Source of the DNA: Pseudomonadota bacterium
GTDB taxonomy: Bacteria > Myxococcota_A > Polyangia > Palsa-1104 > JAEUJZ01
Direction of reading: 5' to 3'
NCBI GenBank assembly: GCA_035345715.1
Contig: DAORCY010000081.1
Coordinates: 1-23,534, forward strand
Length of the DNA stretch: 23,534 nt
Below are positions 2,391 through 21,374 of the stretch, piece after piece. Positions within the stretch are counted from its first letter, which is position 1, and each line of letters starts with the position of its first letter. The translations under genes and the position numbers were made by a program. The notes beneath the pieces are model-generated. The model saw only the letters and a program-made list of their open reading frames with translations. It was not told the DNA's origin and ran no database searches.

Positions 2391-3485
2391 ATGCACATTG
2401 TGCGCATTCAGCGTGGGCCCCAGCCCCAGGTGTCCCTTCTGCAAGAACATCGCTACGAAAAGGAAAAAGACCTGGAGCGCGATCTGGCATCGTCCCCGCT
2501 CTTGATTCAGCAAGTGATGGGAACGCCGATCCACCTGCTCGCGTCTTCCTTCCGCTTGCCTGGTGATGAACGGGTCGCCGGTCTGTATATCGACAGCGAC
2601 GGAAGATTGCTTATCTGTGAAGCCCGGCTTGCACGCAACCTGGGATCTGCACGCGAAGTGCTCGGACAGCTTCTCGATCATGTCTCTGCACTGTCTCAAT
2701 ACCGAATCGAAAACCTCAGTGCCGCACTGTCCGGAAAACTAGAAGAAGTGCTGCGCACGATAAGCCGCGGCGACATCGATCGCTACACCGCACTGTGGCA
2801 ACAGGTCAGCGATCACCTCACGGCAGGACGGGTCGGAATGGCGCTGGTGCTTGATCGCGCGCCGGCCCATCTGCAGCGAATCTGTCGTTATCTGTGCCAA
2901 AACGTCAGGATTCAGTTTGTGCTGCTCACACTCAAACGATTCCGGGCAAGCGATGACAGCGACATCATTGTTCCGACGCTGATTGCGCAAGCAGCGCAGC
3001 AACAAGCGCAGGCCAACCTGCTGGAACTGGCGGTTCAGTACGCCCACCAAGGACCGGCTGCGATACAGATCGAACACATCAAACACCGCGGCAATTCCTT
3101 GGCGATCCACCCACGCGGCTGGCCGACTGCGGTCCGATATGAATTCCTGATCCATCCAGAGCAAGACTGTCGCATCGGCATCGAGCTTCGCATCGACGAT
3201 CGCGACATGCCGCAAGCGCGCGATCTCATCCGGGTGTTGGGATCGTCGGATATTTTGGAAGTGTTAAAGATTCACTTTGACAGCGCGCGGATCATCTGGG
3301 AAGCGGCGCAGAGCCCAGTCGGACTTGCCATCTTGTTTGATGCAGCAAGCGAGCCCGAAGCGCTGTCTTCCGCGATGTCGGTGTTGATGGAACTGACCTA
3401 CGCCCGAGTGACCGAGCGACTGCGGCACCTAGTCCGCCCGCCCGAATCACAACCAAAGCCGGCCAGTGGAAAAGAGGAATCCTAA
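2391..3485 (+). CDS. hypothetical protein (conserved-looking, function unknown)
   Basis: The long ORF 2316..3485 starts with TTG at 2316; the first ATG is at 2391 (MHIVRIQ...), and the true start is uncertain. Codon usage (ctg/cgc/gaa/gag-rich, GC3 bias) resembles the neighbouring real genes. It is divergent from the kinase operon and convergent with the protease gene, with a hairpin between them. A weak PD-(D/E)xK-like motif is present (GLYIDSDGRLLICEARL), but no confident domain assignment. Confidence 0.5.
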   Translation: MHIVRIQRGPQPQVSLLQEHRYEKEKDLERDLASSPLLIQQVMGTPIHLLASSFRLPGDERVAGLYIDSDGRLLICEARLARNLGSAREVLGQLLDHVSALSQYRIENLSAALSGKLEEVLRTISRGDIDRYTALWQQVSDHLTAGRVGMALVLDRAPAHLQRICRYLCQNVRIQFVLLTLKRFRASDDSDIIVPTLIAQAAQQQAQANLLELAVQYAHQGPAAIQIEHIKHRGNSLAIHPRGWPTAVRYEFLIHPEQDCRIGIELRIDDRDMPQARDLIRVLGSSDILEVLKIHFDSARIIWEAAQSPVGLAILFDAASEPEALSSAMSVLMELTYARVTERLRHLVRPPESQPKPASGKEES

Positions 3486-3496
3486 CCACGGAAGGG

Positions 3497-3523
3497 GGAT
3501 CTCCTTTTGAACAAAAGGAGTCC
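3497..3523. terminator. stem-loop between convergent genes (possible bidirectional terminator)
   Basis: ggaTCTCCTTTTgaacAAAAGGAGtcc forms an 8-9 bp perfect inverted repeat with a 4-nt loop. It sits exactly between the stop of the + gene (3485) and the stop of the - protease gene (3536). The T/A tracts lie inside the stem rather than flanking it, so this is not a textbook intrinsic terminator. Confidence 0.3.
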
Positions 3524-3535
3524 TTACACGCTCGC

Positions 3536-4465
3536 TCACTTCGGTTTTTGCAGCGTGCAGCCGGCGCGGTTTAGATCGATGTTGTTGCTTGCATCAAGAC
3601 ACGCATACACCTGGTAAAGCTGCTGTCCGTAGGCAGCGCCTTTCGTCGCTGTGATCTTGCCGCTGGCATCCACTTCGCATGGATTGTTGAGCGTGCAAGT
3701 TGCGCCGCTTTCGTTGCCGGTGTTGTTGATTCCGATCACGGCGCGCGTCTCTGCATCAATGATCGGGGAACCGGATGTACCACCGATCGTTTCGCAGCCC
3801 GGCTGCTTGAAACGGATCGAGTCACGGAACGTCCAGGTGCCTTCGCGCAGCTCTGGAACAAACGCATCAATCGAGCAGGAATAGATCCGGCGCCAATATC
3901 CGGAGACAATCCGGATCGGGGTTCCTTCTCCCGGACGGCGGGACGAAATCGTCAGCGCGGTCACGCGATAACGAGACGAAAGCTGGGCATACGTCTGCGT
4001 CAGCTTGTAGATCGCGAAGTCCGATCCAGTCATCGTCGCATACATCATCCGCTGTGCCCGCAGCGTGGCCAACGATCGCGCACTGGCATCCAGCAGCGTG
4101 AACGTCCGGCTCGACGCTTGATCCACCACCGCATCACCGGCAGGAACAAAGCCGCTCAAGCAGTGACCATTGGTGAGCACCAGCGCATAGTCATCGGGCT
4201 TCGACGTACTAAAACGGACCAGCGATCCCGAACAGTTGGAAAGCGCCACAATCGACGCGAAGTCCACCGCGGCTGCATCGATCTCATCCCAGGTTGGCAG
4301 CTTGGATTCTGCTTCGGCGGCTTCCTGCGGATTCCCAACCGGCAGTGCTTGCGCCTGGTTTTGCGCCAAAAGCTGAAACGAAGCGATCAGCGCGGCACCA
4401 GCCCAGCGACGTGAAAACAGGGATGAACTACGCGACGAAGTTGCCTTTGTTTGTGGACTACGCAT
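3536..4465 (-). CDS. secreted trypsin-like (S1 family) serine protease
   Basis: The ORF is 3536..4510. The ATG at 4465 is preferred because of a strong SD (AAGGAGGAGAGAGG) immediately upstream and a signal peptide (MRSPQTKATSSRSSSLFSRRWAGAALIASFQLLAQNQAQA). The catalytic triad motifs are TNGHC (His), DFAIYKL (Asp) and GGTSGSPII (the GDSGGP-type Ser). Several Cys are consistent with disulfides. Confidence 0.75.
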   Translation of the reverse strand: MRSPQTKATSSRSSSLFSRRWAGAALIASFQLLAQNQAQALPVGNPQEAAEAESKLPTWDEIDAAAVDFASIVALSNCSGSLVRFSTSKPDDYALVLTNGHCLSGFVPAGDAVVDQASSRTFTLLDASARSLATLRAQRMMYATMTGSDFAIYKLTQTYAQLSSRYRVTALTISSRRPGEGTPIRIVSGYWRRIYSCSIDAFVPELREGTWTFRDSIRFKQPGCETIGGTSGSPIIDAETRAVIGINNTGNESGATCTLNNPCEVDASGKITATKGAAYGQQLYQVYACLDASNNIDLNRAGCTLQKPK

Positions 4466-4596
4466 CCTCTCTCCTCCTTGCTGTTTGTGAAATTCGCAAG
4501 CGCCAAACACTCATCGCTTAGGAATGTGCAAGCAGACAAGATGGGAGTTTTCTTCCCGATTCGCAGGATGGCTGGGGACTTCACCCCCATGCACAT

Positions 4597-6717
4597 CTAC
4601 AGCTCCCCACGGACTCCCAACGAAGGCAGAATCGGTAGTCCCGTGATCGCGGCGCGCTGGGAGTAATCATAGGAATAGACAAGCTGCTCCTGCGCCGGAC
4701 TATTGTACACATTTGACACGTCAAGATACAGCTTGAACACCATTTTTTTCGTCACAAACGTCCGATCAATTCGCAAATCAAGCTGATGAAACGGAGCCAG
4801 TCTGTCTGTATTCCGTTCCGACGCTGGAATCGGCTGATACAGATCGGTGTCGCTGTCGAAAAAACCGCCGCGCACCGGAGTCTGGGGAATTCCACTTATG
4901 TACCGGAAACGCAGACCGATCTCGAACTTGTAGGGCAGGTATGCGTGCGCAGCGACAATCAGGATGTGGGTCTGATCAAAGTCAAACAAGCGATAGGAAC
5001 ACGACGGACAATCGGCTCTCTCACTTCGCAAGAGCGAATAGCTTACCCAACCAAAAAAGTACTTCGACAGGCTCTGCCGCAAGAGCAGCGTGCCACCGAA
5101 AATCCGTCCATGAACCTGCGAAGCAGTCCGTTCAGGCTGCAGCTCGAGCGGATTTTCCCCACCACCAAAACGCCGCGACAGCGTCGATGTTCCGGCAAAA
5201 TCCCACAGGTATTTGTAAAGCCCGGTAAGCTCCAGAACCAGTCCTTTCCAGATCGCTTGTTCGACCGCCAAAGACAGATGCACCGCGCGTTCAAGCCGCA
5301 GCTCCCGATTCCCAAACGATGAAAAGTAGTCCTGCACTGCGGGGTCTTGGGAATACAGTCCGGCGCCCCACTTCAGCTGTGTGATCGGTGTCAGCACCAC
5401 TTTTCCGGAAAGCCGCGGATCGATCGAATAGCGACGCAGATAACCAAAATAATCAAAGCGCACGCCAGACACGACAGAGACCCGCGGGTGAAGCTGCGCC
5501 GATAGCTCGGCATAGAGCGCGGGATTCACAAAGTATGCTTCAGCCTGCGCAACGACTTGGGACAGAGATCCGGGCGGTTTCTGAAACTCGCCTTCGCGCA
5601 CAGGCGATGGCACCGCCGCAGACAGCCAGACATAGGAAGTCTGCACATCGGTTCCGAAAAACAGGCGATATTGTGGAGTGATTTGACGGCTGGCTTCGAC
5701 GCGAAAGTCGTTCCCCAACGTCTTTACCGACATCGAAACCGTGCGCCCCAGATCAAGGTCTGTCTGGGTGTATCCGCTGGTGCTTTGGAACAGTACGTCC
5801 CAGCCGGAAAACTGTCTTTGATAGCGCAGTTGCAAGCGGTGAAACAGAATGTGGGTTGCAAAATTCCCGTTCACCGAGGGATCGACATCCTGCGGACGCG
5901 CAAACTTGAGCGAGATTTGATCGTCCGCACCGAGCACCATCACCCGCAGCGTCCCGCCAGCGAGCGCGTACTTTAAGACCGCTTGGTAGTCCCAATAGAC
6001 CGGCGCATTCACAAAGCGCAGCCCCGGCGGATCACCCAGCACAGCCCCGACAAACGCCAACCCCGCATCCACATAGCTGCGCCGCAGCCCGAGCAAAATC
6101 GATCCGCTCGGCTGCTGCGTCTGCGCGTTCCTTGGTGGCAGCGGACCTTCGACTTCGACCCCAATGTGGATCGGATTTACATCGAGCGCAGCATGCCAGC
6201 GATCGGTTTTCCCGGCTCGCAGATCGACGTCAATGGTGCCCGCGGTCGCCCGTCCGTAACGCACGCCGAAGTTGTGGGGAAGATACGTCACGGACGATAA
6301 AAAATCCGCCGGCACCACCGATGTAAAGCCGCCATAGTGGTAGAGCTGCGGCACCTCGGCGGTCGCCAAATAGACGCGAGAATCCGACGGACGCGCGCCT
6401 TCGATAATGAAAAGTCCGGTGTTCAGCGGTGGCCGCGCCGCCCCCGGCAAGTTCTCGATGGCACGCAGCGGATCGCCGAGCGTTCCGGGCATCTTGCGCA
6501 GCTCTTCGGTGTGGAGCGTCTGCTTGCTGACTTCCGCACGCAGCGCCGGATCTTCGGCCCGCACGACCACGTCAAAGGACGACTCCGCATGGGCCATCGG
6601 CAAAGCACAGCACAGCCAGGCGCAGATGCCAGCGACGCTGCATTGGGGCGGAATCACAAGCGACGCCGCCCGACGCCACGTCCAAGGAAACGGCGAACAA
6701 GGGCTCATGACCCACAC
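4597..6717 (-). CDS. TonB-dependent receptor-like outer membrane protein (plug + beta-barrel)
   Basis: A 706-aa ORF starting with GTG at 6717, or ATG at 6708. The long signal peptide ends AHA-ESS. The N-terminal plug-domain signature is EELRKMPGTLGDPLRAIENLPGAA ... IIEGARPSDSRVYLAT ... VTYLPHNFGVRYGRATAGTIDVDLRAG, which matches the TBDT plug consensus by eye. The remainder is Gly/Tyr-rich with alternating hydrophobics typical of a 22-strand barrel. The C-terminus (..LGVRGEL) lacks the usual terminal aromatic residue. Confidence 0.65.
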   Translation of the reverse strand: MWVMSPCSPFPWTWRRAASLVIPPQCSVAGICAWLCCALPMAHAESSFDVVVRAEDPALRAEVSKQTLHTEELRKMPGTLGDPLRAIENLPGAARPPLNTGLFIIEGARPSDSRVYLATAEVPQLYHYGGFTSVVPADFLSSVTYLPHNFGVRYGRATAGTIDVDLRAGKTDRWHAALDVNPIHIGVEVEGPLPPRNAQTQQPSGSILLGLRRSYVDAGLAFVGAVLGDPPGLRFVNAPVYWDYQAVLKYALAGGTLRVMVLGADDQISLKFARPQDVDPSVNGNFATHILFHRLQLRYQRQFSGWDVLFQSTSGYTQTDLDLGRTVSMSVKTLGNDFRVEASRQITPQYRLFFGTDVQTSYVWLSAAVPSPVREGEFQKPPGSLSQVVAQAEAYFVNPALYAELSAQLHPRVSVVSGVRFDYFGYLRRYSIDPRLSGKVVLTPITQLKWGAGLYSQDPAVQDYFSSFGNRELRLERAVHLSLAVEQAIWKGLVLELTGLYKYLWDFAGTSTLSRRFGGGENPLELQPERTASQVHGRIFGGTLLLRQSLSKYFFGWVSYSLLRSERADCPSCSYRLFDFDQTHILIVAAHAYLPYKFEIGLRFRYISGIPQTPVRGGFFDSDTDLYQPIPASERNTDRLAPFHQLDLRIDRTFVTKKMVFKLYLDVSNVYNSPAQEQLVYSYDYSQRAAITGLPILPSLGVRGEL

Positions 6718-7314
6718 AGCCTACCACTCGGATGCGGCGGCGGGTCTGCAGCGAATCGGCGCGCTGGCCGGAACGCGGTCCTAGCGGCGGGCCTTTTTCT
6801 TGGGTCGCGGCGGCGGACTGGGCTGCGCCCCCGGATATCCCACGAGCCACGTCGGACATGTCAGCACAGGAGTCATACCCCCCAGAACGCAGAACGGGGC
6901 GCGAAGTTTTTTCCGATTTTGACTTGTTTTTTGTTTGGCATGTTACATGCAACTAACAAAGGGTATTGCGCACCGGAACCACCCGACCGATAAACATGTG
7001 TCCGGCCTTGTCAGATCCAAGCTCGCTTCAAGCGATTGCTTTGTCGAATGGGTTGAAAGGATCGCGCAGCGGCCCGGCCTAGACACACGGGGTTTTAGCT
7101 GAACCGATCGGATGGGATCAGCGGATTGAGCAGCCCGATGCAACAAAAAAATTTTGTGTTTTGGAACGCAAAACTCGCAAGTATGCTAAAGATCGGTTAA
7201 AAACAAACGAGCGCCCGTGCCAGCAGGAGCCGGGAGCCACTCAGGGGGGACGTTTCTTTGCAGCGGGCGCTTCGCGCGCCGTCCCGCCTGAATACAGAAC
7301 ACAGGGAGGAATCA

Positions 7315-8970
7315 ATGAGCCGTCCACTTCTCACGCGCACGCTGTCCGGGGCCATGCTTGCCCTGTCGCTCGGCGCGTGCACCGCGCCACAGGTTGGCAG
7401 CCCTTGTCCGATTCCGACGAACGCCGACAGTGCGACGCGGCTCGCGGCGGTCCAAAAGTGCTTTGGTCTCATCGCCCAGGACCACAATGACTACAGCCTG
7501 AAAAAAGATGTCGACATCCTGTTTATGATCGACAACTCGCCGTCGATGTCGCCCAAGCAGAAGGCGCTTGCCGACAACATCCCGAAGTTCATTCAGTCGA
7601 TCGAGTCGTTCGGCGTAAACTACCACGTCGGCATCATCACGTCTGACGTCGGCACGACGGTATCAGACGGCGCGACGTGGGGCGGCGGCTCCGAACCAGC
7701 CTGCGATACGTTTAGCGGCGACGATGGACGGCTCCAGGACATCACCTGCGACAAGCGCAACACCGTATCGCCCGACGCTCGCAGCGCTTGCGCGACGCTG
7801 TGTCCCGACAACCGTTTCCGGCCCACCGACGGCAGCAAGTTCATCTCGAAGATCGACGGCAAGACCAACGTGCCGCAGGACGTTCGTCCTGATCCGATGA
7901 CCGGCGCAATGGTCGACTACGGCCCGTCGAATGCATTTAAGTGCATGGCGCTCGTCGGCGATGCTGGCTGCGGTGTCGAAGGCCCGCTCGAAGCGGTCAA
8001 GCGCGCGCTCACCACCAATTCGACGACGGCGAATGCAAACTTCCTGCGCAGTGGATCGCTGCTCGCTGTGATTTTCATTACCGACGAAGACGACTGCTCG
8101 GTCAAGGCGTCTCGTCGCAGCGAGCTAAACCCCAACTACCGCAACTGCACCCCAGGCCAGCCCGACAGCTACGACTGTTACAAAGTCGATCAGCGCTGTC
8201 TTTTGCGCTCGCTTCAGTGCAACGAACCGATGAGCACGCCGGGTGGCAAGACCGGCTGCGTCGAGCGCCCGGACAACTTCCTGGAGCCGGTGAAGACCTA
8301 CTTTGACGCGCTGCGCCAGATTCGCCCCGACGATGACAAGCTGCTGATCAGCGGCATTTGGACCCAGCCAAACATCGACTCCGCCAAGGGTGGCACGGTC
8401 GGCATTGTCGGTGGTCCGCTGACGTCGGATCTCAAGCGCGACCCAGCCTGCAAAAATGCCACGGACACGACCATCGTCGGTCAGCCGCAGTTCCGCCTGT
8501 CGCAGCTTGCGACGATGTACGGTGTAGGCAAAGACGGAAGTGCCAACGCGCCGCAGCTCAACGTCTGCAACACTGCGGACTATCCGACGGCGCTCGACAA
8601 GATTGCCAAGGCGATTCAGATCAAGCTCAATCCGTGTCTACCCGTCAATGTGAAGACGATCAATGGCACAGCGATCTGCTTGGTCGGCGATGTCGACGCG
8701 AGCACGCCTGACGCAGTGCCCACGACGTACTTCCCGCAGTGCTCGAACACCTGCTGCGATGCCTGGGCCAGCAGTTCGACGCCGTCTCTCGCGGACAAGA
8801 CGATCCAAGCGGCCTGCGCTGCCGAGACCACCGACGCCTGCTTCTGCGCGGTCAAGCCCAAAGATCCGACGGTCTGCAAAGACGGCGGCACCGTGACCGC
8901 CGTGTGGCGCAAGGGCGGCGTTAACACTCCGCTCGGCAAGACCGTGAACTTCCGCTGCGCCGGCTTCTAG
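7315..8970 (+). CDS. secreted Cys-rich vWA-domain lipoprotein (paralog 1)
   Basis: The ATG at 7315 is preceded by AGGGAGGA with a 6-nt spacer. The signal peptide with lipobox is MSRPLLTRTLSGAMLALSLGAC. The vWA beta1/MIDAS motif is KDVDILFMIDNSPSMSPKQKAL (DxSxS), followed by VGIITSDVG and the beta4 motif LLAVIFITDEDDCS. Many Cys (more than 30) are spread through large insertions, consistent with an extracytoplasmic disulfide-rich protein. It ends ..VNFRCAGF. Confidence 0.75.
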   Translation: MSRPLLTRTLSGAMLALSLGACTAPQVGSPCPIPTNADSATRLAAVQKCFGLIAQDHNDYSLKKDVDILFMIDNSPSMSPKQKALADNIPKFIQSIESFGVNYHVGIITSDVGTTVSDGATWGGGSEPACDTFSGDDGRLQDITCDKRNTVSPDARSACATLCPDNRFRPTDGSKFISKIDGKTNVPQDVRPDPMTGAMVDYGPSNAFKCMALVGDAGCGVEGPLEAVKRALTTNSTTANANFLRSGSLLAVIFITDEDDCSVKASRRSELNPNYRNCTPGQPDSYDCYKVDQRCLLRSLQCNEPMSTPGGKTGCVERPDNFLEPVKTYFDALRQIRPDDDKLLISGIWTQPNIDSAKGGTVGIVGGPLTSDLKRDPACKNATDTTIVGQPQFRLSQLATMYGVGKDGSANAPQLNVCNTADYPTALDKIAKAIQIKLNPCLPVNVKTINGTAICLVGDVDASTPDAVPTTYFPQCSNTCCDAWASSSTPSLADKTIQAACAAETTDACFCAVKPKDPTVCKDGGTVTAVWRKGGVNTPLGKTVNFRCAGF

Positions 8971-9206
8971 TCCCCATGGGCAGCCGCTAACGACTGCCCC
9001 ACCCGCCTGATCTCCCCGTCGTCACGCTACAAATTCCGCAAAAACGCAGTCCTTCCGTAAGGTTTTCTTGCGTCCGTGGCCTAACCCACCAAGTAGTCCA
9101 TTGGCGGTGACTGTCGCTTGCTCTCCCCCGTTCGATCAGGTACGGTGCCGCCGAACGCCAACGACTTACACGGTTTGCGACCCCGAAATTCGCACGGAGG
9201 CTTGTG

Positions 9207-17438: not shown

Positions 17439-19064
17439 ATGGGCGGGGTGCTTGGATATCCATCGCTGCTGTGTGCAGTGATGTTGCTCATCGGCTGCGG
17501 CAGTGCGCGGACTCCGCAAGGAACGCGGACGCAGTGCACAAGCTGGAAAGACGATGTAGCACAGATCATGAAAGACAACTGTGGCAGTTGTCACAGCGGC
17601 CCGGCACCTGCGGGTGGGCTTGATACATCGGATTATTTGTCCGTCTTGGGAGGCGGTTCCCAGCCTGTTCGATCCGTCGCTGGGGATGCAAACTCCCGGC
17701 TTCTTTCGATCATCGCGAGCGACACCACATCGGATTCCCACAAGCGCATTTCCGATGCAGTCCGTGATTCGCTGCGGACCTGGATCGTGGACTGTGGTGT
17801 GTCCTACGTTCGATCGATCTATCACCAAGCCGGAATCCTAAACCCCGAAGATCCAAACGGGCAGTTTCACGGTGCGCTGCTGCGGCAAGCAAACTACAAG
17901 CTCAGCGCGTGCAGCGGCTGTCACGGTCAAGACCTGACAGGGGGCGAAGTCAAGGTGTCGTGCCTGACCTGTCATCCGCAAGGCGTGACCACCTGCGATA
18001 CGTGCCATTCCCGTCTGCCAAGTGCCCACCGAGCGCACGCAACCGGCGCTTCACTGGGTCGTCAAATCGCGTGTACAGAGTGCCATCCAAAGCGTGTCTC
18101 TTGGCTTGATCCGGGGCATGTGTTTAACAGCGATGACACCCTGCGCACGTCGCCTCCGATCATTGCATTTGGAAGCTTGGCCAGTGCGACTCCCTACGCG
18201 ATGTATCGCACAAGTCCGCCGCTGTTTGATGCCGGGACCAAGCAGTGCACAAATGTCTACTGTCATGGTGCTGTGCTCGGCGATCTCAATGCAGCGAATA
18301 CGACGCCAACGTGGACAGGACCGAGCACGCAAGCGATCTGCGGAACCTGTCACGGCGCGCCCCCTGCGAGCCATGATCCAAGCATCACCCGCTGCGTGCT
18401 TTGTCACAACCGCACGGTGGACGATGCCAAACACTTTGTCACAGGGGGTCTGCACGTAAACGGAAAGAGCGATGCAGGCGATGGCAAAGGCCAGTGCTCA
18501 TCTTGCCACGGATTTGGCGGCAGCAGTCCTTTTCAGGATCTGTTGCGGAAGACCGATACAAGCCTCGTCAGCGTCGGCGCACACGCAGCGCACGTCAATG
18601 CCAGTCACAAGCTGAGCGCTCCGATTGCGTGCTCTGAATGCCACCGCAACGACCTGCAACTTCTGGGCAGCGGCAACCTTCACAAAGCGTTCGGACAAGG
18701 TGTCACCATCTTTCCGGCCTCGCTTGCGGCGCAGCTTAGCAATCGAGAAGGAGCCAGTCCCAAGTGGGATCGCGCAGCCGCCAAGTGTTCCAGTACGTAC
18801 TGTCACGGCAGCGGCAGCAAGCTGCTGACAGACACCAGTACGACGGTGAATCGGAATCCGATCTGGAACGCAGAGAACCAAGCGTCGTGCGGATCATGTC
18901 ACGGCATTCCGCCCAAAGATGCCAACCACACCGCCACCATGCGACTTGTCGACTGTGTGACCTGCCACGCCAAGACCATGGACGCAAGCGGCACGATTCT
19001 CTTTTCTGGTCCGCCGGGAGCCCAGACCACGACGCACCTAAACGGAGTCGCCGATGGAAACTAA
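17439..19064 (+). CDS. multiheme c-type cytochrome lipoprotein (11 CxxCH + 2 CX4CH-like motifs)
   Basis: The ATG at 17439 lies 6 nt after the upstream stop, with SD AAAGGAG 8 nt upstream. It has a perfect lipobox (MGGVLGYPSLLCAVMLLIGCGSA). CxxCH motifs are CGSCH, CSGCH, CLTCH, CDTCH, CTECH, CGTCH, CVLCH, CSSCH, CSECH, CGSCH and CVTCH, plus two CX4CH-like motifs (CTNVYCHG and CSSTYCHG). The C-terminal half carries internally repeated modules (..Q.xCGxCHGxPP...C.xCH..T.D......H.NG..D). Confidence 0.85.
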   Translation: MGGVLGYPSLLCAVMLLIGCGSARTPQGTRTQCTSWKDDVAQIMKDNCGSCHSGPAPAGGLDTSDYLSVLGGGSQPVRSVAGDANSRLLSIIASDTTSDSHKRISDAVRDSLRTWIVDCGVSYVRSIYHQAGILNPEDPNGQFHGALLRQANYKLSACSGCHGQDLTGGEVKVSCLTCHPQGVTTCDTCHSRLPSAHRAHATGASLGRQIACTECHPKRVSWLDPGHVFNSDDTLRTSPPIIAFGSLASATPYAMYRTSPPLFDAGTKQCTNVYCHGAVLGDLNAANTTPTWTGPSTQAICGTCHGAPPASHDPSITRCVLCHNRTVDDAKHFVTGGLHVNGKSDAGDGKGQCSSCHGFGGSSPFQDLLRKTDTSLVSVGAHAAHVNASHKLSAPIACSECHRNDLQLLGSGNLHKAFGQGVTIFPASLAAQLSNREGASPKWDRAAAKCSSTYCHGSGSKLLTDTSTTVNRNPIWNAENQASCGSCHGIPPKDANHTATMRLVDCVTCHAKTMDASGTILFSGPPGAQTTTHLNGVADGN

Positions 19065-20316
19065 ATCCCATCAAAGACTCAAGCGGTCGATTCTGTGCGG
19101 CGCGCTGTGTTTGGCTTCCGTAGCGCGTGCGGACTCGGTCGAATTCAATGTATCGACGCTGCTGTCCGGGCGGGCCGACCCACGGGACGGAGAGATCCAC
19201 ACCGTCGTTCCGGTCTATCAATCGCTTGGTGTCACAGCGCAGATCAAGCGCCCCTATTTCGACAGCATCAACATTGTGATGTCGGGCTGGGGCTCTGTAC
19301 AACTGGACATAGGCCGTGACGAGTACTGGTCCGGAGACATCGATCTTGGCTATCTGGAAGGCAGCTTCTGGAAAAAAAGGGTGCAAGTACGTCTGGGTCG
19401 TCAGTTTGTCTTTGGTGGGGCCGCGCGCAGCACCCAGCTCGACGGTGGATCGGCGACTCTGCAAATCTACAAAGGACTTGGGATCAGCGGGTACGGGGGC
19501 GTTCCGGTCACGCCGCGTTTTTCGGTCAGCCGCGGGGACGTGGTGTTCGGCGGCAGGATGTTTTACCGCCACTCCGTGGATACCGAAGTCGGGGTGTCTT
19601 TTCACCAAGTGATGGGGGAAGGCCGCGCCGCCCGTCAGGACATCGCCGTCGATGCACGCTATGTTCCCCATGAACAGATCGCGCTGACCGGATATACGCT
19701 GTATTCGATTCCAGAAGCGAGGGTTGCGGAAGCCGATGTGGCAGCAACCTGGATTCCCAATCTGATGTTTCAGATCGGCGCCGATTATCGTCGGACAGCA
19801 CCCGATCTGTTTCTGCCGCTCAACTCGATTTTTTCGGTGTTTTCGCAAGAGACACGCGATGAAGTCGGCGGGAATGTCTTTTTCAAGCCGATCCGCAGAC
19901 TCCGTTTCTATGGCGATCTCCGCGCAGTCGTGAACATGGAAGGAGTCGGAGCGCGCGGCGGAATCAAGGCCACAGTCGCACTGGGACAGCGCGATCACAC
20001 GACGCTAAACGGCGAGCTGCGCGTACTGAAACTGCCAAACAATGGCTACGTCCAAGCGCGGCTTTACAGCACCCACAAGCTGACTCCGGCTTGGTTTGTG
20101 ACGCTGGGTGCCAACAGTTACTTTTTGGATCAACCGATAAACGGACAAGCGTTTTCGTTTACGGGAACCGGAACCGTTGCAGGCAACTTGGGTCGCGGCT
20201 TCCGAATCGTGGCGACAGGCTTTGCCGACGTGACTCCGTTTGTGGAAAGGCGCGTTGAGTTTGTCGTAAAGCTCGCGTACAACGCAACGCAAGTCTTCCG
20301 TGAGGTGCAGCAATGA
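19054..20316 (+). CDS. outer-membrane beta-barrel (porin-like) protein, candidate porin component of a porin-cytochrome conduit
   Basis: 420 aa. The start overlaps the upstream stop by 11 nt (ATGGAAACTAA). The signal peptide is METKSHQRLKRSILCGALCLASVARA-DS. The mature protein is rich in Gly/Tyr/aromatics with alternating hydrophobic stretches (VQARLYSTHKLTPAWFVTLGANSYFL; RFYGDLRAVVNMEGVGARGGIKATVALG). There is no heme motif and no obvious catalytic motif. It sits between multiheme cytochrome genes with start/stop overlaps on both sides. Confidence 0.55.
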   Translation: METKSHQRLKRSILCGALCLASVARADSVEFNVSTLLSGRADPRDGEIHTVVPVYQSLGVTAQIKRPYFDSINIVMSGWGSVQLDIGRDEYWSGDIDLGYLEGSFWKKRVQVRLGRQFVFGGAARSTQLDGGSATLQIYKGLGISGYGGVPVTPRFSVSRGDVVFGGRMFYRHSVDTEVGVSFHQVMGEGRAARQDIAVDARYVPHEQIALTGYTLYSIPEARVAEADVAATWIPNLMFQIGADYRRTAPDLFLPLNSIFSVFSQETRDEVGGNVFFKPIRRLRFYGDLRAVVNMEGVGARGGIKATVALGQRDHTTLNGELRVLKLPNNGYVQARLYSTHKLTPAWFVTLGANSYFLDQPINGQAFSFTGTGTVAGNLGRGFRIVATGFADVTPFVERRVEFVVKLAYNATQVFREVQQ

Positions 20317-21374
20317 GCGCCCGAGCCCTCCGCTGGTTTTTGCTGGCCAGCGTTCTATTTACCGTCGCCTGTGCGACATTCTGGGCCAAGATCGGTGGGG
20401 GCGACACGATCAAGGTTCCACACAGCGTCCACAGCAAAGCCAAGATCGACTGCGTGGTCTGCCACGAGCCGATTTACGACGCGCACGACATGAAAGGGGA
20501 CTTCTTTCCCAAGGAGTCAAAGTGTCTGGAATGCCACGAAGACAACAAAAAGAAAGGCGAGTGCGGATTCTGTCATTCTGATCCGATTCGCCCGACTTCC
20601 TATCGGCGGACTCCATCGACGCTGAAGCTGTCGCACGCCAAGCACATCGAGCAGACCAAAGAAGACTGCACCCGCTGCCACAAGACGCTGTCGGAAAAAG
20701 GCCAACCCGGTACGCCGCCGACCATGGAGTCGTGCTTTGGTTGCCATACCCACAAGCAGGAATACGAGCAAGGAAGCTGCGGCACCTGTCACAAGGATCT
20801 GCGCCGCTATCCGCAGAAACCGATCACGCAGTTTTCGCATCGCGGCAACTTTGTACTGGGCCATGCTCGACCGGCGCGATCCTCGCCAGAGAGCTGCGCG
20901 ACCTGTCATGAACAGACATTCTGTGCCGACTGTCATGCCAAAACGGTGTTCGCTCCGATTGAGCTGAAATTCCCAGAGCGCGCCGACAGCGATCTGATTC
21001 ACCGCGGCGACTTCATCGGCAGACACAGCATCGAAACGCGCGCCGATCCGGCATCGTGTCTGCGCTGCCACGGACAGAGCTTCTGCGAAAACTGCCACAA
21101 AGAGCAGGGCGTAAGTGGTCGCAGCGACAACCCACGAAACCCACATCCATCGGGATTCAACATTCCGGGTACGCCGCAGTTTCACGGTCTTGCAGCCCGA
21201 CGGAACATCACAAGCTGCGCAAGCTGCCACGATCAAGGTCCGCGCTCAAACTGCGTAAACTGTCACAAGGTCGGCGGACTCGGTGGGAATCCGCATCCGC
21301 CTGAATGGATGGAGCGACACGACCGTCAAGAGATCGTGCGAAACGGAATGTGTCGCTACTGCCACACGCTGTAG
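20313..21374 (+). CDS. multiheme c-type cytochrome, 13 CxxCH (probable periplasmic component)
   Basis: The ATGA start/stop overlap with the upstream gene indicates translational coupling. The signal peptide is MSARALRWFLLASVLFTVACATFWA. There are 13 CxxCH motifs in 353 aa, about 27 aa per heme: CVVCH, CLECH, CGFCH, CTRCH, CFGCH, CGTCH, CATCH, CADCH, CLRCH, CENCH, CASCH, CVNCH and CRYCH. A repeated c7/c3-like unit appears three times: SC.TCH.Q.FC..CH. Confidence 0.85.
   Translation: MSARALRWFLLASVLFTVACATFWAKIGGGDTIKVPHSVHSKAKIDCVVCHEPIYDAHDMKGDFFPKESKCLECHEDNKKKGECGFCHSDPIRPTSYRRTPSTLKLSHAKHIEQTKEDCTRCHKTLSEKGQPGTPPTMESCFGCHTHKQEYEQGSCGTCHKDLRRYPQKPITQFSHRGNFVLGHARPARSSPESCATCHEQTFCADCHAKTVFAPIELKFPERADSDLIHRGDFIGRHSIETRADPASCLRCHGQSFCENCHKEQGVSGRSDNPRNPHPSGFNIPGTPQFHGLAARRNITSCASCHDQGPRSNCVNCHKVGGLGGNPHPPEWMERHDRQEIVRNGMCRYCHTL

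Follow-up and report, generated by a model that had tools for sequence, protein, structure and literature searches.

Two tandem Cys-rich vWA/MIDAS lipoprotein genes beside a bacterial major vault protein homolog: probable adhesin-type envelope proteins in a most likely lineage-specific gene order

The lipoprotein pair and its MVP neighbour

The DNA analysed here, hereafter called the window, is a stretch of 23,534 nucleotides (contig DAORCY010000081.1 of assembly GCA_035345715.1) from a bacterium deposited as Pseudomonadota and placed by GTDB in Polyangia (Myxococcota_A). Its G+C content is ~58-60%, and its nearest relatives are metagenome-assembled genomes (MAGs) labelled Polyangia or Myxococcales. 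[quoted passage not shown] A preliminary description of the window, made from the sequence without database searches, presented these genes as a candidate three-gene module and drew a parallel with VPARP (PARP4), a vault-associated partner of MVP in eukaryotes with a vWA domain of its own. By surveying 60 bacterial MVP loci, we found that MVP genes in this sample have no conserved neighbour of the MIDAS-type vWA kind, these lipoproteins included, and sequence comparison suggests that the adjacency of lipoproteins and MVP is most likely a recent, lineage-specific gene order. The three genes are as follows.

7315..8970, plus strand: lipoA, a Cys-rich vWA/MIDAS lipoprotein of 551 amino acids starting at ATG 7315; the faster-evolving paralog
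9207..10874, plus strand: lipoB, a paralog of lipoA of 555 amino acids starting at ATG 9207 (alternative GTG 9204); the slower-evolving copy
11048..13984, plus strand: the MVP homolog of 978 amino acids, identified with Pfam; a neighbour that very probably forms no module with the lipoproteins

The tandem and co-oriented arrangement beside MVP that had been reported was confirmed, with intergenic gaps of 236 nucleotides between lipoA and lipoB and 173 nucleotides between lipoB and MVP. The product of 11048-13984 is a true MVP homolog with shoulder and vault repeat domains, as had been supposed: MVP_shoulder (PF11978; E 2.6e-18, 66.6 bits with a cutoff of 25), Vault_3 (E 3.7e-07), and Vault_4 (E 7.8e-05) were all matched above their cutoffs, and the vault repeats scored 30.6 bits with PF17795 (cutoff 28.8) and 23.2 bits with PF17796 (cutoff 22.9). 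No signal peptide was found in this protein. A Pro/Ala/Ser-rich low-complexity linker of ~110 residues (residues ~240-350), weakly conserved in a consensus of 15 homologs, lies between its conserved N-terminal domain and its vault-repeat/shoulder part. MVP homologs found in our searches number 284 and come chiefly from Polyangia; the evolution of MVP is reportedly treated by Daly et al. 2013. Bacterial MVP homologs have already been described in Myxococcales, Cytophagales, and Oscillatoriales, in a report that makes no mention of neighbourhood, operon, or vWA (bioRxiv 10.1101/872010).

Sequence, predicted fold, and relatives of the lipoproteins

LipoA and lipoB are ~55-56% identical to each other (56% in alignment A2, which comprises 65 lipoprotein homologs and is the basis of all residue conservation figures given here). 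Each has a basic and then hydrophobic signal peptide with a lipobox, LGAC in lipoA and MSAC in lipoB, whose Cys is residue 22; this Cys is kept in 98% of the 65 homologs, and a lipobox regular expression matches most of them. The MIDAS motifs DILFMIDNSPSM (lipoA) and DILFLVDNSPSM (lipoB) are both present, and a complete MIDAS of the form D-x-S-x-S ... T ... D is found in the two proteins. The 65 homologs show no substitution at D73, S75, or D257, and at least 90% of them keep S77 and T109; the TDEDD strand that holds D257 also has T256 and D259 conserved in at least 90%. Both the lipoprotein signal peptides and the vWA MIDAS were therefore correctly recognised in the preliminary description. 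Each protein contains 27 Cys residues, of which 23 are invariant and the other four, including the lipobox Cys22, are 95-98% conserved. Besides the lipobox residue there are 26 conserved Cys residues, an even number scattered along the chain, which fits ~13 disulfides in an oxidising extracytoplasmic compartment.

Pfam VWA models (PF00092/PF13519) gave no match for lipoA and a local match for lipoB (E 0.043, 14.5 bits versus a cutoff of 23.8), so the gathering threshold is reached by neither lipoprotein; weak matches were obtained for 21 of the 65 family members (best E 0.001). Such sub-threshold scores can be attributed to the large insertions that break the sequence profile. The family profile matched no PDB sequence at E<=1, no other Pfam domain and no PARP, haem, or iron-sulfur (Fe-S) motif was found in lipoA or lipoB, and no curated Pfam or NCBIfam model passes its cutoff for either protein, in agreement with the earlier failure to recognise the family. 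By structure comparison, the lipoproteins have a predicted vWA Rossmann-like alpha/beta fold: all of the 60 matches listed for the AlphaFold2 (AF2) model (predicted local distance difference test score, pLDDT, 85.5) are vWA domains, and Foldseek concurs. The secondary-structure map of the model places vWA strands at residues 65-72, 102-109, 249-255, and 343-348, two long insertions between vWA strands at ~113-247 and ~263-341, and a separate beta-rich, Cys-rich C-terminal domain at ~441-551, which bears out, together with the 27 Cys per protein, the very large Cys-rich insertions noted before. The ~13 disulfides suggested by the Cys pattern probably staple the loop insertions and the C-terminal domain.

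Integrin beta I-like domains are among the best structural matches. These and the Gram-positive pilus-tip adhesins PitA, SpaC, RrgA, and GBS104 share only 12-16% sequence identity with the lipoproteins, and they are anchored as sortase pili or transmembrane integrins, whereas lipoA and lipoB have a lipid anchor, and their inserted elements are not homologous to the insertions of lipoA and lipoB.

Three lipoproteins of known function come closer. The first is CglB (MXAN_3060), the gliding-motility adhesin of Myxococcus xanthus, a vWA/MIDAS outer-membrane lipoprotein of 416 amino acids with its lipobox Cys near residue 20 and with 17 Cys, 16 of them in predicted disulfides that staple loops; it is exposed at focal adhesions, its MIDAS residue D56 is required, and its mobility shift depends on dithiothreitol (DTT), consistent with disulfides (PMC9946355). 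As compared by published description only, CglB and lipoA/lipoB have in common the lipobox Cys, the DxSxS...T...D MIDAS, and a high Cys content (27 Cys in 551-555 amino acids with the lipobox at Cys22, versus 17 Cys in 416 amino acids). They differ in that lipoA and lipoB are ~135 residues longer, have larger insertions, and carry a Cys-rich domain at the C-terminus, whereas CglB has an N-terminal beta-jellyroll. The second is Bd0875 of Bdellovibrio bacteriovorus, a lipoprotein with a vWA/MIDAS domain, a cap insertion, a small beta-rich domain, and four predicted disulfides, whose MIDAS is needed for normal prey invasion and whose MIDAS mutants lose function (PMC11003981). NF052240 (Bd0875 MIDAS family adhesin) was the sole NCBIfam model matched by our proteins at E<=0.1 (lipoA 1.5e-11 and lipoB 1.1e-10), the match being local (44.1 and 41.2 bits versus a cutoff of 700) and short of full-length membership. 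Bd0875 has 378 amino acids and four predicted disulfides, versus 551-555 amino acids and ~13 disulfides predicted for lipoA and lipoB, and comes from a different phylum. The third is CglD, the integrin-like gliding lipoprotein of M. xanthus, which has 1124 amino acids and extra domains. There was no direct match of lipoA or lipoB to its model NF033765 at E<=0.1, but three members of our family (P0318, P0312, and P0371; P numbers designate homologs of the lipoproteins) match the vWA region of this model (profile ~605-934) at E 8e-8 to 4e-6 and are themselves matched by the lipoA/B family profile at E ~1e-45 to 1e-53, which provides transitive evidence for a shared vWA lineage.

The superfamily outlined by the A2 profile is large, with 12,430 cluster representatives at E<=1e-3 and 5,957 at E<=1e-10, and includes variants of ~570 amino acids with a different N-terminal region and a subfamily of ~460 amino acids, the members of which match the vWA region of CglD with the E-values given above and also match the Bd0875 model. 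Relatives in the shorter subfamily are named 'VWA domain-containing protein' or hypothetical, the named ones being mostly from Myxococcota MAGs, and when the distant member P0318 was used as a query for homologs, these same two kinds of name came back and no CglB label. We rejected filing lipoA and lipoB under Pfam VWA, NF052240, or CglD because the thresholds were not reached and CglD gave no direct match. On the other hand, both proteins have the motifs and the predicted structure by which MIDAS-bearing vWA domains and bacterial lipoproteins are defined, and for this reason we place them among the Cys-rich vWA/MIDAS envelope lipoproteins of predatory/gliding bacteria; by analogy, they appear to be the same kind of protein as CglB, CglD, and Bd0875. 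The suggestion of an undescribed adhesin or metal-binding family thus comes near the truth: no curated model is matched at its cutoff, but adhesins of the same kind are known. The large disulfide-rich vWA/MIDAS lipoprotein superfamily outlined here is mostly from Myxococcota. With a curated model and the characterisation of a single member, thousands of proteins now called 'hypothetical' in predatory/social bacteria could be better annotated.

Gene neighbourhoods and transcription signals

The survey comprised 60 MVP loci with the window included (designated by L numbers), among them 14 from genomes (obtained with a single MVP query, which covers close relatives only) and 41 from metagenomes (obtained with MVP alignment A1), and all loci were searched by tblastn for both lipoproteins and for flanking genes. 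Lipoprotein genes were detected upstream of MVP in 16 of the 60 loci, the window among them, and the MVPs of all these 16 share 84% identity or more with that of the window. The 39 loci with at least 1.6 kb of sequence upstream of MVP but no lipoprotein genes there include several with an MVP 85-89% identical to the window's (L012/L025, L056, L023/L061, L044, and L046). In a neighbour-joining tree built from the N-terminal domain of MVP, the lipoprotein-positive loci fall in one shallow terminal clade, in which this domain is at least 96% identical; lipoprotein-free sublineages (L012/L025, L044/L046, and L023/L061) are nested within the positive clade, and the sister and deeper clades are all negative. 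The 31 loci whose MVP is less than 80% identical have no vWA or MIDAS neighbour, and all-against-all clustering of the open reading frames (ORFs) lying up to 6 kb from MVP in the 60 loci gave no family common to these 31 distant loci. Within the same distance, the lipoprotein-family hidden Markov model (E<=1) and a MIDAS regular expression found nothing in the 44 loci other than the 16. Neighbourhood conservation across MVP-bearing bacteria is therefore lacking outside one shallow clade, and within that clade the adjacency has been broken, so that neither the three-gene module nor the vWA/MVP co-occurrence paralleling VPARP is borne out by the comparison.

The lipoproteins, conversely, occur apart from MVP. 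Five remoter homologs on long contigs (P0066, P0072, P0104, P0033, and the lipoB-like P0039; eight loci) have no MVP within 10 kb and lie in unrelated neighbourhoods, and solo homologs are found with neither lipoA nor MVP, such as one of 57% identity in L006 and the lipoB-like P0039 in L066. In L021, the lipoprotein pair is intact but stands 5.7 kb from MVP, with unrelated genes in between. Close homologs (lipoA ~74% identical) keep the order lipoA-lipoB-MVP-EF-hand and also most of the unrelated flanking genes. Other genes of the window are as follows.

4597-6717, minus strand: a TonB-dependent receptor, divergent from lipoA
14190-15152, minus strand: an EF-hand Ca2+-binding protein, convergent with MVP and ~200 nucleotides past the MVP stop
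15004-21374, plus strand: MtrC/MtrF-like and cytochrome c7-type multihaem cytochromes (809, 573, and 353 amino acids)

A Ser/Thr kinase and a trypsin-like protease are also encoded in the window, and searches of the window for tRNA genes and for Agl-Glt genes found none. Since the trypsin-like protease, the TonB-dependent receptor, and the EF-hand gene are largely kept together with the adjacency, the preserved gene order is as expected from shared descent. In 14 loci of the shallow clade, the EF-hand gene is found together with MVP or with the C-terminal half of MVP; it was considered as an MVP partner and rejected, because it tracks MVP in the same shallow clade only and is absent from distant MVP loci. 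In L012 (MVP 88% identical), an MvdD-type ATP-grasp enzyme, an ABC transporter, and a BNR/YCF48-like protein are located upstream of MVP (3277-8218), which looks like a microviridin-type cluster for a ribosomally synthesized and post-translationally modified peptide (RiPP) in place of the lipoprotein pair. We also observed that the reading frame of MVP breaks off after residue 516 (GIDQKSGI) in L021 (10001-11674) and L019 (10001-11365), both on contig JBGAUT010000014.1, and likewise in L023/L061, L044, L046, and L018, all of one sublineage. The N-terminal half runs into 46 unrelated codons followed by a stop, the C-terminal half is found ~13 kb away past amidase, kinase fragment, and amidohydrolase genes, and both halves are 85-88% identical to the window MVP; the interruption may stem from a rearrangement or mark a pseudogene or a functional split.

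Four candidate transcription signals were detected around the three genes.

~7143-7209 (core 7186-7208), plus strand: an AT-rich non-coding block of ~60 nucleotides, ~110 nucleotides upstream of lipoA, found by conservation
9118..9146, plus strand: a promoter-like element of lipoB, TTGCTC, a 17-nucleotide spacer, and TACGGT, with conserved hexamers and a variable spacer
10943..10963, plus strand: a hairpin between lipoB and MVP, CACCGTCT-tgctg-AGACGGTG, with a stem of 8 bp
10987..11015, plus strand: a promoter-like element of MVP, TTGACC, a 17-nucleotide spacer, and GATGAT, found by a promoter scan

The core 23-mer of the block upstream of lipoA, CTAAAGATCGGTTAAAAACAAAC, is 100% identical in all 14 of the fetched loci that hold the lipoA upstream region (chance expectation 0), with the lipoA protein being only ~75% identical across the same loci, and the block is probably a promoter with a transcription-factor site or operator. 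Just upstream of the 23-mer, relatives have the palindrome TTGCA-N-TGCAA and the window has TTTTG-N5-CAAAA at the same place. An RNA structure was considered for this block and set aside in favour of a regulatory site at the DNA level, as RNAalifold gave no compensatory pairs and Rfam no match, and a sigma-54 reading of the upstream blocks, checked by eye, was rejected owing to a misfit in GG/GC spacing. L066, whose solo lipoB-like gene has no lipoA before it, carries the lipoB element upstream of that gene as well. As for MVP, the promoter scan found two matches against 1.1 expected, so that a single match is not significant alone. In the alignment of upstream regions, however, the hexamers of the MVP element are conserved and its spacer is variable, whether lipoB or unrelated genes lie upstream (L012, L056, L023, L044, L046, L022, and L020 keep it with other upstream genes), indicating that this element travels with MVP. 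We infer from these conserved elements before each gene that there are three separate transcription units, whose promoter activity is predicted.

A terminator active at the hairpin between lipoB and MVP had been named in the preliminary description as something that would count against the module. The hairpin is stable (z -2.8; dG -18.5 kcal/mol with flanks), but it is not followed by a U-tract and the terminator scan reports no terminator there, which leaves a canonical intrinsic terminator between lipoB and MVP unsupported. Relatives have a GAGACGG-type inverted repeat equally far from the MVP element, including some lipoprotein-free loci, and for this reason the hairpin may belong to the MVP control region; its role may be that of a terminator or of an operator.

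Proposed role and alternative explanations

Taken together, we consider it likely that lipoA and lipoB are MIDAS adhesin-type envelope lipoproteins which have their own promoters and are positioned beside MVP without functional coupling. The separate parts of this proposal differ in strength. That they are extracytoplasmic vWA lipoproteins unrelated in function to MVP is highly probable, and their location is most likely the outer membrane or the cell surface. A function as adhesins, or in ligand binding through the MIDAS, by analogy with the relatives described above, appears to us an evenly balanced possibility. In the proposed mechanism, each of lipoA, lipoB, and MVP would be transcribed from its own promoter, and the lipoproteins would be lipid-anchored at the outer membrane and possibly surface-exposed. 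A divalent cation held by the MIDAS would have its coordination sphere completed by an acidic group of the ligand, candidates for which might be the substratum, matrix, prey, or a carboxylate of a partner protein, and the insertions, stapled by disulfides, would give the binding surface its shape and control access to it. Several points weigh against this proposal. The fold, the motif, and remote relatives are the grounds on which the adhesin function is predicted; the likeness to CglB is drawn from a published description; the similarity to Bd0875 spans only ~52 residues round the MIDAS (65-116; profile 56-107 of 378); and the disulfide pairing is predicted from the Cys pattern. In addition, the survey covers gene adjacency, so lipoproteins and MVP may co-occur elsewhere in the same genomes, and read-through from lipoB into MVP may take place, considering that the hairpin has no U-tract and there is no canonical terminator.

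The two paralogs have diverged at different rates: for the same genome pairs, ortholog identity is 89-94% for lipoB and 75-84% for lipoA, and the additional changes in lipoA are distributed among the insertions, the vWA domain's C-terminal half, and the C-terminal domain. Such unequal rates fit subfunctionalisation or specificity diversification after duplication. They would also be compatible with an integrin-like heteromer composed of a conserved lipoB subunit and a fast-evolving lipoA specificity subunit, an idea that gains from the tandem pair having been held together in 16 of the 16 loci of the clade and from the integrin beta I-like domains among the best structural matches. We nevertheless regard the heteromer as unlikely, because family members are mostly single genes, lipoA and lipoB have separate promoter-like elements, and rate asymmetry is usual after any duplication.

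It is also conceivable, albeit improbable, that the lipoproteins are substrate-capture partners feeding ligands to the divergent TonB-dependent receptor (4597-6717, minus strand). An ortholog of this receptor is divergent upstream of lipoA in eight loci (the window, L004, L005, L011, L013, L014, L024, and L045), and in L006/L007 a receptor of 60% identity (L006 927-3125) lies ~7 kb from the solo lipoprotein homolog. However, the receptor is missing beside lipoA in L001, L002, L016, L026, and L027, where a DUF1003 gene is found instead, and is also missing from the solo loci L008, L010, L066, and L068; moreover, we know of no class of vWA/MIDAS proteins that act as partners of TonB-dependent transporters.

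A functional module in this lineage, with the vWA lipoproteins working with an MVP shell in a VPARP-like manner, is very improbable. The genes are co-oriented and tightly adjacent (gaps of 173-236 nucleotides) in the window and 15 related loci, and no canonical terminator separates lipoB from MVP. Against this, the adjacency is limited to one shallow clade and was lost at least two times inside it, no vWA or MIDAS protein lies near MVP in the other 44 loci, the remoter lipoprotein homologs never adjoin MVP, each gene has its own promoter-like element, and in L021 lipoA and lipoB are intact although MVP is interrupted and 5.7 kb away. The caveat in the preliminary description that the proteins would occupy different compartments has proved well founded, as the lipobox and the 26 conserved Cys residues speak for an extracytoplasmic location and the MVP homolog has no signal peptide. 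VPARP, for its part, is cytoplasmic and contains PARP catalytic and MVP-interaction domains, whereas lipoA and lipoB are secreted lipoproteins, not conserved beside bacterial MVP, in which the PARP domain of VPARP is missing and no other Pfam domain was found. We give equally little credence to the idea that envelope vWA/MIDAS lipoproteins and a cytoplasmic vault-like MVP were newly recruited to a common function in this shallow Polyangia clade, whereby, for example, a surface-adhesion signal might be coupled with the EF-hand Ca2+-binding protein to a vault-like compartment; if true, it would provide the first genetic handle on what bacterial MVP does. A real three-gene module would likewise have given a rare functional clue to bacterial MVP, a clue that the comparative evidence removes, and the finding that MVP has no conserved neighbour in this sample is a useful negative for searches for bacterial vault partners.

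Finally, the idea that the cysteines are metal or cluster ligands of metal-binding/redox proteins, to which the 27 Cys per protein, the Joint Genome Institute (JGI) label 'metal-sulfur cluster biosynthetic enzyme' of homolog P0011, and the hint of extracellular electron transfer from the MtrC-like multihaem cytochromes at 15004-21374 might lend some weight, has very little in its favour, since the 26 conserved Cys after the lipobox are even in number and spread with no CxxC or CxxCH clusters, Pfam gave no haem or Fe-S motif, the cytochrome genes are not beside the lipoproteins in L001, L004, and L013, and the mobility shift of the related CglB is DTT-dependent, consistent with disulfides (PMC9946355). 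The multihaem cytochrome cluster itself, amid which sits an ORF of 420 amino acids with no Pfam match, suggests extracellular electron transfer in a Polyangia-like genome.

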